From: a virus | Taxonomy: Duplodnaviria; Caudoviricetes | Length of the DNA: 29,661 nucleotides | Reading direction: 5' to 3' (one strand) | IMG/VR virus record: IMGVR_UViG_3300030372_001141 | Coordinates: 1-29,661 of that record | Part shown: piece by piece, positions 263 through 28,868 of the stretch | Position numbering within the stretch: the first letter of the stretch is position 1 | How the letters are laid out: every line of letters begins with the position of its first letter | Program-made: the position numbers and the translations under genes | Notes under the pieces: model-generated | Told to the model about the DNA's origin: nothing | Databases searched by the model: none | Seen by the model: only the letters and a program-made list of their open reading frames with translations

Positions 263-293
263 ATTATATTAACAATAAGGATAGGAGCAAAAT

Positions 294-1130
294 ATGAGGA
301 ATAGAATCTTGCAAAAGACATTTTGGACATCTGATGAGATACTTGAGCTAGAGCTATATGAGAGATTATTATTCTTAGGCATGACTAACTATGCAGATGA
401 TGAAGGCATAATTAAGACATCGCCAAAAGGCTTAAAAGCAAAGATATTTCCTGCTGATGAGATTGCAATAGTAAAAATATCAGAGTCGCTTGAAAAGATG
501 GCTAGTTTAGGTTTAATTAAGTTTAATGAAGACAAGTCACTCTGTAGGTTTACAAAATGGCATGACCATCAAAAAATCAATAGACCATACCCATCAAAAT
601 TTAATTTTATAGACGAGAACAATGATGATTCAGTGAATGTTCAAAGAATAATCACAAATCATTCACCTGCAAATAAGAATAATAATAAGAAAAAGAATAG
701 TAAAAAGAAAAAGAAAGATAATAATGAGTTTCGTGTGTGGTATGATATTTATCCTAGAAAGATAGCAAAGCCAAAAGCTGAACATAGTTTTAATGCTATG
801 ATGAATAAGTATGACCTAGAAGAAATAATGGACGGCACTACAACATGGGTGGAATATTGGGAAAACGCACATACAGAAAAAAGATATATACCTCACCCTG
901 CTACATTTTTAAACCAAGAGAGGTTTTTAGATGAACCTGATGAGTTAGAGACAGAGGTATTGTACAAGCTAGATACAACAGGTCATTTTTATGTGGGATT
1001 CTGTGCTAAATGTAAAAAATCAGGATTTTACAAAAAAGAAGAACTAAGTCAAGACTCTAAATGTTGTAAGAGTAAAATATTACCTAACAGAGATGTTAAT
1101 TTAATACAAGACGTTAATGCAGAAGCATAG
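294..1130 (+). CDS. Phage replication initiator (replisome organiser / O-like) with Cys-rich C-terminal extension
   Basis: N-terminal FW..D...LLFLG..NYADDEG domain; K/N-rich linker; C-terminal WYDIYPRKIAK...YIPHPATFLNQERF motif typical of phage initiators. SD AGGAG at 283-287. Confidence 0.8.
   Translation: MRNRILQKTFWTSDEILELELYERLLFLGMTNYADDEGIIKTSPKGLKAKIFPADEIAIVKISESLEKMASLGLIKFNEDKSLCRFTKWHDHQKINRPYPSKFNFIDENNDDSVNVQRIITNHSPANKNNNKKKNSKKKKKDNNEFRVWYDIYPRKIAKPKAEHSFNAMMNKYDLEEIMDGTTTWVEYWENAHTEKRYIPHPATFLNQERFLDEPDELETEVLYKLDTTGHFYVGFCAKCKKSGFYKKEELSQDSKCCKSKILPNRDVNLIQDVNAEA
624..726. other. Putative replication origin inside the initiator gene
   Basis: Four degenerate 11-bp tandem units with TCA at 630, 641, 652 and 663, directly followed by an A/T-rich tract at ~671-726. 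Same layout as origins inside lambdoid O genes. Confidence 0.45.
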
Positions 1131-1224
1131 ATTTATAGAGCAGTCACTTGCTCCTCCTTGTTCGTGTTCCCAACAACACCGAACATACTCACCTATAACT
1201 CCAGTAGTGAGGGCTGCTCTATAA
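1117..1224 (+). CDS. Possible 35-aa bridging ORF (MQKHRFIEQSLAPPCSCSQQHRTYSPITPVVRAAL)
   Basis: ATG 1117 overlaps the end of rep by 14 nt; its TAA (1222-1224) overlaps the next ATG (TAATG). No clear SD. Confidence 0.3.
   Translation: MQKHRFIEQSLAPPCSCSQQHRTYSPITPVVRAAL
1133..1224 (+). ncRNA. Candidate structured regulatory (antisense / anti-RBS) RNA
   Basis: Perfect 11-bp closing stem TTATAGAGCAG (1133-1143) / CTGCTCTATAA (1214-1224). Inner hairpin TGTTCGTGTT-CCCAAC-AACACCGAACA (1159-1185). TCACT/AGTGA pairing. Segments are complementary to the early leader at 28066-28096. Confidence 0.55.
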
Positions 1225-1457
1225 TGCACGTACTTGAAAGCTATTTTATGGCACTGGTTTTATTTCAGCCAATAGAAGAATTATACACCTGCAATCACCC
1301 TAACACCATAGACAACAATCAACAATTTTTATGCAACTGGGTAGATACAGATTTCATTAGAAATAGAAACGGAGACAGGGTGTTAAAAAAATACAATCAA
1401 GATGACAATTTTATAAAAGCATATTACAGACGTAAATATTGGAGTAGGAATGACTAA
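1224..1457 (+). CDS. Hypothetical protein (77 aa from ATG 1224)
   Basis: ATG 1224 is preferred over TTG 1158, which lies inside the hairpin; the ORF overlaps the next gene by 8 nt. Confidence 0.6.
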   Translation: MHVLESYFMALVLFQPIEELYTCNHPNTIDNNQQFLCNWVDTDFIRNRNGDRVLKKYNQDDNFIKAYYRRKYWSRND

Positions 1458-6635: not shown

Positions 6636-6931
6636 TGGCAGAATATCAAGGCAAAAAAGTGCAGCTAGACAAGCCAAGCAGAATACAAAAAGGCGAAGCA
6701 GGGTATGGACGCAAGAAGTTTAAAGTCTATGTGAAAGATGGAGACAAGGTTAAAAAAGTAATGTTCGGTGACCCAGTTAGAAAAATTAAAAGCAATATTA
6801 AGAAAAATAAAAAAAATTTTAGGTCTAGATTTAACTGTGATAGCAATCCACCTAAAGACAAAACAAAAGCAAGATATTGGGCGTGTAAATTTTGGTCATC
6901 AAAATCAGTAACAGAGTTGTTGCGTGGCTAA
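6635..6931 (+). CDS. Basic conserved phage protein
   Basis: AEYQGKKVQLDKP...KKFKVYVK...KVMFGDP...FRSRFNCD...ARYWACKFW; from recall, resembles uncharacterised proteins of T4-like marine phages. Confidence 0.8.
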   Translation: MAEYQGKKVQLDKPSRIQKGEAGYGRKKFKVYVKDGDKVKKVMFGDPVRKIKSNIKKNKKNFRSRFNCDSNPPKDKTKARYWACKFWSSKSVTELLRG

Positions 6932-8061: not shown

Positions 8062-8090
8062 TTGACTTTAATGTTTAATATATGTATAAC
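8062..8090 (+). promoter_or_regulatory. Sigma70-type promoter for scaffold/capsid genes
   Basis: TTGACT (8062-8067), 17 nt, TATAAC (8085-8090) in an AT-rich intergenic gap. Confidence 0.65.
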
Positions 8091-16511: not shown

Positions 16512-16520
16512 GAGGTAAAT

Positions 16521-16619
16521 ATGCCATACGGAAAAGGAACTTACGGCAAAAAAAGAGGTAGACCGAAACTAAAAAGAAATATGAAAAGAAAGCGAATCAC
16601 TAAAAGAAAGAGGAAATAA
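16521..16619 (+). CDS. 32-aa highly basic AT-hook-like peptide (not in ORF track)
   Basis: SD AGGAGGT; MPYGKGTYGKKRGRPKLKRNMKRKRITKRKRK; stop abuts the next ATG at 16620. Confidence 0.85.
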   Translation: MPYGKGTYGKKRGRPKLKRNMKRKRITKRKRK

Positions 16620-27913: not shown

Positions 27914-27956
27914 AGTTTCCCTCCAACTAATCGAATAACACTCGACTAGTAGGCAT

Positions 27957-27993
27957 AAAAGAGCCCTTTTCTTAATCGTTAAGGGCTTTTTTT
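27957..27993 (+). terminator. Rho-independent terminator ending the late operon
   Basis: AGCCCTT (27962-27968) / AAGGGCT (27981-27987) stem followed by a T-run to 27993. Confidence 0.85.
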
Positions 27994-28027: not shown

Positions 28028-28057
28028 TTGCTTTTTAAATATAAAGTGTAATATATT
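28028..28057 (+). promoter_or_regulatory. Putative early sigma70 promoter
   Basis: TTGCTT (28028-28033), 18 nt, TATATT (28052-28057), with an AT-rich UP-like region upstream; sits directly after the terminator. Confidence 0.55.
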
Positions 28058-28102
28058 TATTTAAGGTTGTTGGGACTTTATAACATAAACAAGGAGTTAA
28101 AA

Positions 28103-28303
28103 ATGAAAAACACAAAACTATCAAATACTGTAGAGCTTGTATTAGAGACACACTTTATGCGAATTGCAAAAGTTATTTCTGGTTGGGACAAAGGAGCTAT
28201 TTTAATTCAAAATAGAGCTACGTCTTTCGAGGACTGGAGCACACCTATTAGAATGTCTAAGAATGACCTTGACATTTTTTTAAGCAACTTAAATAACGAT
28301 TAA
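28103..28303 (+). CDS. Early hypothetical protein
   Basis: SD AAGGAG at 28091-28096 supports ATG 28103 rather than TTG 28067. Confidence 0.75.
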   Translation: MKNTKLSNTVELVLETHFMRIAKVISGWDKGAILIQNRATSFEDWSTPIRMSKNDLDIFLSNLNND

Positions 28304-28305
28304 GC

Positions 28306-28602
28306 ATGAATCAAGAACATCAATACATAGACGGAGTGCAGTGCGACAATCAGGATTGCTATGCCTGTGCTAAGATGAAAGATTGTAATAGGTTAGATGA
28401 GTTAGATAAACAAAACAAGGAGAACAAAATGACATACAAGGGAAAAAAGGGCGGAGATTCGTGGTACGAAAAGTATGAGTCTGTAACAATGCCTTCTACA
28501 GTATTCTGTTGGGATTGTGCTAAACCTTTACCAAAAGGCGTAGAAATTTCTACTAAATGTCCATGTCATACAAAAAAAAATAAAAAAAAGGGAGATGCGT
28601 AA
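28306..28602 (+). CDS. Cys-rich early protein; strong internal start at 28429
   Basis: CDNQDCYAC and CWDC...CPCH clusters; AAACAAGGAG precedes the in-frame ATG 28429. Confidence 0.65.
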   Translation: MNQEHQYIDGVQCDNQDCYACAKMKDCNRLDELDKQNKENKMTYKGKKGGDSWYEKYESVTMPSTVFCWDCAKPLPKGVEISTKCPCHTKKNKKKGDA

Positions 28603-28868
28603 TGAACTATATAACAGAGCTGTGTGGCAGTGTATTTGGGTCAAATACGCAAGAATTACTAGAGTCGCATGATAAGCATAGCAAAGATAAAACCTTGCTT
28701 AAAATCAAAGAAAAGATTAAACTTATCGGTTGGGGTGGGTATCATATTGTCGGCTATATAAACGGACATAAATACTACAAAGTCAAATTGCATGATGGGA
28801 CATTAATCACAATGGAAAAGAATGGACGTGTCATGCACATATTACAAGATAAAACAAGGAGGGCATAA
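28602..28868 (+). CDS. Early hypothetical protein
   Basis: TAATG coupling on both sides; SD GGGAG. Confidence 0.7.
   Translation: MNYITELCGSVFGSNTQELLESHDKHSKDKTLLKIKEKIKLIGWGGYHIVGYINGHKYYKVKLHDGTLITMEKNGRVMHILQDKTRRA

Follow-up and report, generated by a model that had tools for sequence, protein, structure and literature searches.

Does the short gap that follows the replication initiation gene (rep) of this phage encode a small RNA directed at the phage's own early genes? The DNA examined here (the window, meaning the whole stretch of 29,661 nucleotides) was the subject of a preliminary description, which proposed that this gap specifies a structured RNA complementary to the 5′ leader of the early operon. 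Stem covariation and RNA-leader covariation in relatives bear out this core idea. The conserved RNA-like element is real, and the comparative evidence, drawn from sequence, that it pairs with its own early leader is strong. It is probable that the element yields a processed small antisense RNA that represses early and rep translation as negative feedback.

Genomic setting and predicted fold

The window corresponds to a circular phage genome of ~29.56 kb with a terminal repeat of 98 nt, in which the plus strand carries the long ORFs; besides the replication initiator, these encode RusA, a ParB-methyltransferase fusion, terminase, lysozyme and tail proteins. In agreement with the earlier claim that this phage has no recognizable CI repressor, neither an integrase nor a CI-type repressor was recognized among the 43 proteins scanned in the window. 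PF00589, PF01381 (HTH_3) and PF00239 were each found in 0/5 of the relatives rated 98-100% complete. The winged-HTH gene that precedes rep in the window could be a protein regulator, which counts against a reading based on RNA. A SpoVG-like gene (PF04026) is located 3′ of rep at 1681-1929, and most relatives carry one too; by analogy, its product could be an ssDNA-binding protein or an RNA chaperone for the element RNA. No tRNA was found with ARAGORN. The gap at 16512-16619 holds a short basic ORF with a Shine-Dalgarno (SD) sequence and an ATG at ~16521, under the 40-aa cut-off.

Searches of GTDB returned only distant Kitasatospora/Streptomyces matches (23-32% identity) and no close prophage; consequently, neither host nor prophage was identified. 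A close relative was not found among cultured phages. Relatives (L numbers below) were gathered with rep, tail-end, RusA and downstream-ORF queries. Three of four further contigs looked unrelated, and the fourth, L308, stops before rep. Several relatives carry TARA labels, and the habitat of the phage group is therefore likely marine.

The arms of the closing stem, TTATAGAGCAG (1133-1143) and CTGCTCTATAA (1214-1224), form 13 pairs when G-U pairs are counted, and the inner hairpin (1159-1185) presents the loop CCCAAC. In the predicted ensemble, the inner stem buries part of the window's seed, and the 5′ anti-RBS box is partly single-stranded. The closing stem, the loop and the pairing segments of the preliminary description are all present where it placed them; a third box, absent from that description, is TAACTCC, the complement of GGAGTTA at 28093-28099. 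The plus-strand fold of 1133-1224 has a predicted energy of -31.7 kcal/mol (z -6.04) that 0/200 shuffles equaled, and the minus-strand fold has a z of only -2.66. Rfam contained nothing relevant to the window (E ≤ 5) or to 1080-1280 (E ≤ 10) and gave 0 gathering-level matches across 9 relative loci. No U-run follows the closing stem in the window, and no terminator was found in its early region. Table 1 collects the features.

Table 1. Features of the element and its predicted targets in the window.
Feature	Position	Strand	Basis and remarks
Secondary site AGGAGCAA, rep RBS	283..290	+	8-nt match; predicted
rep (replication initiation protein gene)	294..1130	+	PHROG 270, E 7.9e-26; element directly 3′
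Structured element, predicted small antisense RNA	1133..1224	+	Fold, stem covariation, position; 62-102 nt in 13 phages
Closing stem, 5′ arm	1133..1145	+	Begins 3 nt past rep stop codon
5′ anti-RBS box TTGCTCCTCCTTGTT	1148..1162	+	Complementary to RBS regions 28088-28096, 28414-28422, 28853-28862 and 283-290
Specificity seed TCCCAACAAC	1168..1177	+	CCCAAC unpaired, inner hairpin loop
3′ anti-RBS box TAACTCC	1196..1202	+	Matches 28093-28099 and RBS of ORF 1681
Closing stem, 3′ arm	1212..1224	+	Ends on the A of the following ATG (1224)
Small conserved ORF of no assigned function downstream of element	1224..1457	+	ATG A is the last base of the stem 3′ arm
Terminator-like hairpin and U-run, end of late genes	27962..27993	+	Upstream of early promoter
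Inferred early promoter TTGCTT-18-TATATT	28028..28057	+	Own scan; missed by consensus scan
Target box A GTTGTTGGGA	28066..28075	+	~8 nt past inferred -10 box; complements seed
Target box B, RBS region of first early gene (ATG 28103)	28088..28099	+	Complementarity
Secondary site AACAAGGAG before internal in-frame ATG 28429	28414..28422	+	Complementarity
Secondary site AACAAGGAGG, RBS of ORF 28868	28853..28862	+	10-nt match; predicted

An Atlas search with the downstream ORF gave no usable match. A link between this ORF and the element was considered and rejected, as ORF homologs were found without the element and the element was found without ORF homologs.

Conservation of the element and predicted pairing with the early leader

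A closing stem scoring at least 28 was found within 25 nt of the rep stop codon in 28/33 distinct post-rep sequences, compared to 1/1763 for a random-start control. Two of the five misses (the L004 type and L159) have an inserted gene that moves the element ~590 and ~275 nt away, respectively. In the others, the L144 contig ends inside the element, the stem of L157 is weaker (22), and no element is present in the distant L215 group (33% identity). In L224, the element lies behind a rep-position gene without a match to the rep of the window. The 3′ end of rep itself (1117-1130 in the window; codons for NA.A plus stop, with a small ATGC..GCAT hairpin) is kept in L173 and L230, where the remaining rep diverges. 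When the closing stems of 33 elements were aligned, 97% of 362 cells were paired (41-50% in slid controls), and compensatory double changes occur at 11/11 closing-stem pairs, so that the stem covaries among relatives; these stem statistics are inflated by the choice of elements, each of which was taken as the best stem 3′ of rep. G-U pairs make up 94/493 stem pairs and the minus-strand stem is weaker in 12/12 phages, which together indicate that the plus-strand RNA is the folded form. Both observations argue for the plus strand and against a duplicated leader with minus-strand transcription, the alternative raised with the initial proposal.

A search with an alignment-built model of the element (83 sources, 963 kb) gave at most one plus-strand copy per source, and its sole match outside the clade was weak (E 0.33). 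A 14-nt pattern scan was also tried; the best 120 of ~480 stretches were taken as chance matches and set aside. Literature searches, mostly of openly readable papers, found none on this element, and sequence look-ups turned up nothing resembling it. Four supplement files of PMC10690425 gave no match to the motif or the contig, and the motif could be among the 10,006 candidates of that work.

Several other motifs were seen at these loci. A two-hairpin motif with GTCGAAAAG between the hairpins is conserved in L003 (6948-7025), L127, L131, L132, L134, L138 and L159; it follows the element in one subgroup, stands apart in L224 (5236-5318), is not present after the window's element and had no relevant match in Rfam. 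An apparently non-coding insert of ~330 nt in the early leader of L147 (4440-4785) has a 10-bp closing stem (z -2.8), is flanked on both sides by target-box copies and likewise had no relevant Rfam match. In L004, a direct copy of the early leader (6858-6901) lies ahead of the gene inserted between rep and the element, and this gene consequently carries the target boxes too. Following the last tail gene, a near-invariant TTCCCTCCRAC (anti-SD-like) precedes a variable hairpin and terminator (27916-27993 in the window); it was seen in 13 aligned loci that had been chosen for having the motif, and the region may represent another small RNA, or else a signal for processing or protein binding. The window, L001 and L002 have different first early ORFs (28103-28303 in the window) but almost unchanged leaders and elements, which counts in favor of the antisense reading.

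Boxes like TTGCTT-18-TATATT are found upstream of the leader in most relatives. In the window, CTCCTTGTT (1154-1162) can pair with 28088-28096 and CCCAACAAC (1169-1177) with 28066-28074, the latter extending to 10 nt when T1168:A28075 is counted. The element-leader duplex of the preliminary description has a predicted energy of -29.5 kcal/mol with accessibility ignored. Co-folding of element and leader gains -9.3 kcal/mol, a value reached by 0/500 shuffled leaders. The leader did not emerge as the top target in the genome: 11/2942 scan windows score at least as well as the leader, three of these being the leader itself, and the best score is -39.4 vs. -31.9 for the leader. The pairing evidence from one genome by itself is not decisive. 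The target hairpin that had been suggested (GTTGT/ATAAC) was not recovered, as the leader is predicted to fold into a different, non-significant hairpin (-4.1, z 0.87). A conserved target hairpin as a general feature was rejected.

Co-variation of the RNA interior with the leader was examined across phages. Sixteen loci hold both the element and an early leader, and 13 were used after L134, L129 and L163 were dropped for near-duplicate leaders; the element of L144 is incomplete, and the leader of L147 was set by hand to its promoter-proximal 58 nt. The match was measured as the longest perfect run against the 5′ 36 nt of the leader, with the SD excluded. Among the 13 leader types, cognate pairs have a mean run of 8.69 nt and non-cognate pairs one of 5.30 nt, a difference reached in 0/100,000 permutations. 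For the SD part of the leader the corresponding values are 7.92 and 5.96 nt (7/100,000 permutations). The cognate leader is best by run length in 11/13 phages with ties included and in 8/13 strictly, and by duplex energy in 5/13. With an accessibility penalty, the leader ranks 1-11 of 127-163 scan windows in 13/13 phages (a set in which L134 replaces L144) and is first in 3/13; the window's leader ranks 11 of 163.

Eight phages align in register on a GTT/AAC core and present six distinct target octamers: GGTTAGAC (L147, L173), GGTTAGGC (L003, L134), GGTTATAC (L150), CGTTAGAC (L144), TGTTGGGA (window) and TGTTCGTA (L133). The octamer pairs with its own element at 8/8 positions in seven of the eight phages. 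The eighth, L134, combines the leader of L003 with an RNA of the L147 type, and pairing is kept through one G-U. The element loops of L139 and L151 predict the leader box AGACGTAGGA; in both cases the leader lies outside the contig. The compared phages are relatives, among which L141/L230 and L147/L173 are not independent, and evolutionary events were left uncounted because the trees of tail-end and RusA sequences resolve only in part. The longer cognate runs and the in-register double changes provide the covariation of RNA and leader for which the preliminary description proposed a test. They also bear on the idea that a pyrimidine-rich loop matches purine-rich leaders by chance. The interior is C-rich and G-poor, and other scan windows in one genome score equally, as this idea would have it; however, non-cognate leaders of the same composition match far less and the double changes fall in register, such that chance complementarity is disfavored and appears extremely improbable.

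Arrangement of the boxes, candidate additional early targets and proposed mechanism

The preliminary description envisioned a single collinear duplex. The order of the boxes fits one duplex in the window, L128, L133 and L173; it is reversed in L003, L134, L150, L152 and L004, and the collinear duplex does not hold generally. Consequently, two short helices represent the more general model. The reversed order also argues against the proposal that the element is an inverted copy of the leader acting at the DNA level, either as a protein site or minus-strand leader, with a hairpin for replication or termination. The element does adjoin a replication gene, and leader duplications do exist (the direct copy after rep in L004 and the two box copies of L147). 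However, the G-U-rich stems would function on the plus strand only, no U-run follows the window's stem, and G-U intermediates keep RNA pairing in L134, L141 and L230, although the tally is tiny (2 G-U, 0 A-C, 2 other). Taken together, these observations make a DNA-level role very unlikely.

Box A is located 20-40 nt upstream of the first ATG and a few bases past the inferred -10 box, and in most pairs box B extends over the SD or the spacer between SD and AUG. The position of box A, near the inferred start site and outside the SD, together with the weak hairpins around it in some leaders, would suit a trans-acting RNA with a positive or stabilizing effect, in which pairing at the extreme 5′ end shields the early mRNA or alters its structure. 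Coverage of the SD region by box B argues against such a role. Furthermore, leaders fold weak hairpins or none at all, and the SD is mostly left exposed, so there would be little for a protective RNA to relieve, and we regard this reading as distinctly unlikely.

The leader as the single target, which had been supposed, is not supported, as other early RBSs, including that of rep, match the interior too. Matches of at least 8 nt occur in 18/99 early start regions and 1/98 late ones, and the excess of cognate over non-cognate matches is +0.54 nt for early and -0.14 nt for late regions (p 0.0008). For the rep RBS, the cognate and non-cognate values are 6.82 vs. 5.73 nt over 17 distinct classes (25/100,000 permutations); loci lacking a complete homologous rep start (17) were skipped, and the rep-RBS match is just 4 nt in L133 and L160. 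At the rep and ORF 28868 sites of the window, nested co-folding gave neither a gain nor a stable complex; the secondary targets are therefore less certain than the leader.

In the nested co-fold of the window's element with the leader, the closing stem is lost. This result suggests a switch in cis, in which the leader, either part of the same transcript or present as a short RNA, invades the element in the uncut mRNA and unfolds its closing stem, so that the start codon of the following gene becomes free. In the window, L128, L150, L152 and L173, that gene's ATG lies against or within the 3′ arm, and the activation of orf45 by IsrK, as described in PMC4825925, offers a precedent. However, opening of the stem in the co-fold may reflect the model's ban on pseudoknots, and in the class of L003, L127 and L131 the stem is followed by another structure and no gene start. 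Additionally, the gene downstream is not constant, homologs of it exist without the element, and such a model has no need of the matches to other early RBSs. We therefore consider a switch in cis unlikely, albeit the least unlikely of the four alternatives considered here.

The favored reading remains that of a processed antisense RNA acting as a negative feedback repressor. Comparison of the relatives establishes, for the sequences themselves, a conserved position, a covarying plus-strand stem and an interior that co-varies with the phage's own leader and early RBSs. The element would be transcribed by read-through from the early promoter, as suggested by displaced copies that follow unrelated gene ends and by the lack of an evident dedicated promoter. 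A nuclease recognizing the 13-21 bp stem would then release the RNA from the early transcript, just 3′ of rep, and the RNA would act in trans. Its phage-specific loop seed may catch the 5′ end of new early transcripts, while the anti-RBS box would pair with leader box B and several early RBSs and block the ribosome; repression, as opposed to activation, is suggested because the boxes cover SD regions. By analogy with OppZ, polarity could silence the rest of the operon. The spacing of 2.6-6.4 kb between leader and element would function as a delay, such that the repressor appears only once rep has been transcribed. A near-consensus promoter (TTGACT-17-TATAAC, 8062-8090 in the window) lies ahead of the scaffold and capsid genes, and the structural genes, with this candidate promoter of their own, could escape repression.

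More tentatively, in these phages lacking a recognized integrase or CI, control of replication and immunity might be exerted by RNA alone, through throttling of the early leader and of rep translation, with the phage in a plasmid-like carrier state and the seed-leader pairs acting as immunity or incompatibility groups that diversify by paired mutation kilobases apart; this extension is possible but doubtful. If it is true that the RNA confers superinfection immunity or copy control, it would offer a route to persistence without integration. The relatives supply ready-made RNA-target pairs, cognate as well as non-cognate, and specificity and cross-repression are therefore directly testable. To our knowledge, co-variation of a trans-encoded RNA with a distant target is seldom so visible.

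Comparison with known RNA regulators

RNA repressors have been described for a few enteric phages. In satellite phage P4, the CI RNA is described as a short processed RNA that silences the phage's own replication genes via two sequences, and its targets seqA and seqC flank CI upstream and downstream (PMC4825925). Like P4 CI, the element is predicted to give a short phage RNA that pairs at two boxes with the phage's own early and replication genes. In contrast to P4 CI, the targets found here are upstream, the main one is 2.6-6.4 kb away, and the RNA follows rep; additionally, no 3′ CCA is conserved and lysogeny genes were not found.

The two boxes of C4 RNA are short and differ between heteroimmune phages. 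Similarly, the short complementary boxes of the element vary between related phages. The C4 RNA of P1/P7 is reported to be a structured RNA processed from the operon that it controls (PMC8198154, PMC5499578), and processing of CI and C4 is attributed to RNase P (PMC5499578). As in these systems, the element is co-oriented with the leader, 2.6-6.4 kb downstream of it, in 13/13 phages, which suggests co-transcription. The RNase P route needs a 3′ CCA after the closing stem, and the 3′ flanks start with CCA or NCCA in 0/13 phages, which argues against this route here. In contrast to C4, neither a c4-icd-ant operon nor a C1 repressor was recognized in the window, and the predicted targets comprise the first leader together with several early RBSs, that of rep among them. 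A search with the Rfam covariance models gave no relevant match to RF01695 (C4) or another family.

OppZ and CarZ of Vibrio cholerae are described as RNAs that arise from downstream in an operon and block translation of their own transcript in a negative feedback (PMC7398697, PMC12360218). Similar to these RNAs, the element has predicted complementarity to RBSs of its own operon. However, OppZ and CarZ are derived from 3′ UTRs in an RNase E-dependent manner, whereas the element is located mid-operon and is followed at once by co-oriented genes. Furthermore, the element is closed by a long stem, is encoded by a phage and has seeds that vary between relatives.

The plasmid copy-control RNAs RNAI and CopA are countertranscripts that are fully complementary to their targets, so that both partners change together automatically. 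In contrast, the element occupies a separate locus, kilobases from its target, and uses boxes of 6-12 nt, such that each change takes two mutations or a recombination. I-complex RNAI is described as an antisense control of rep translation in which loop bases set specificity among relatives (PMC10724649). The element shares with it rep as a predicted target and a predicted loop-based specificity that differs between relatives, a pattern reminiscent of plasmid incompatibility RNAs. The element thus resembles P4 CI, C4 and OppZ in its proposed action and is a member of none; membership in the CI, C4, OppZ and plasmid RNAI families is denied because some defining tests of each came out negative. 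It represents a separate family of RNA-like elements outside Rfam, in uncultured phages with no recognized repressor or integrase.
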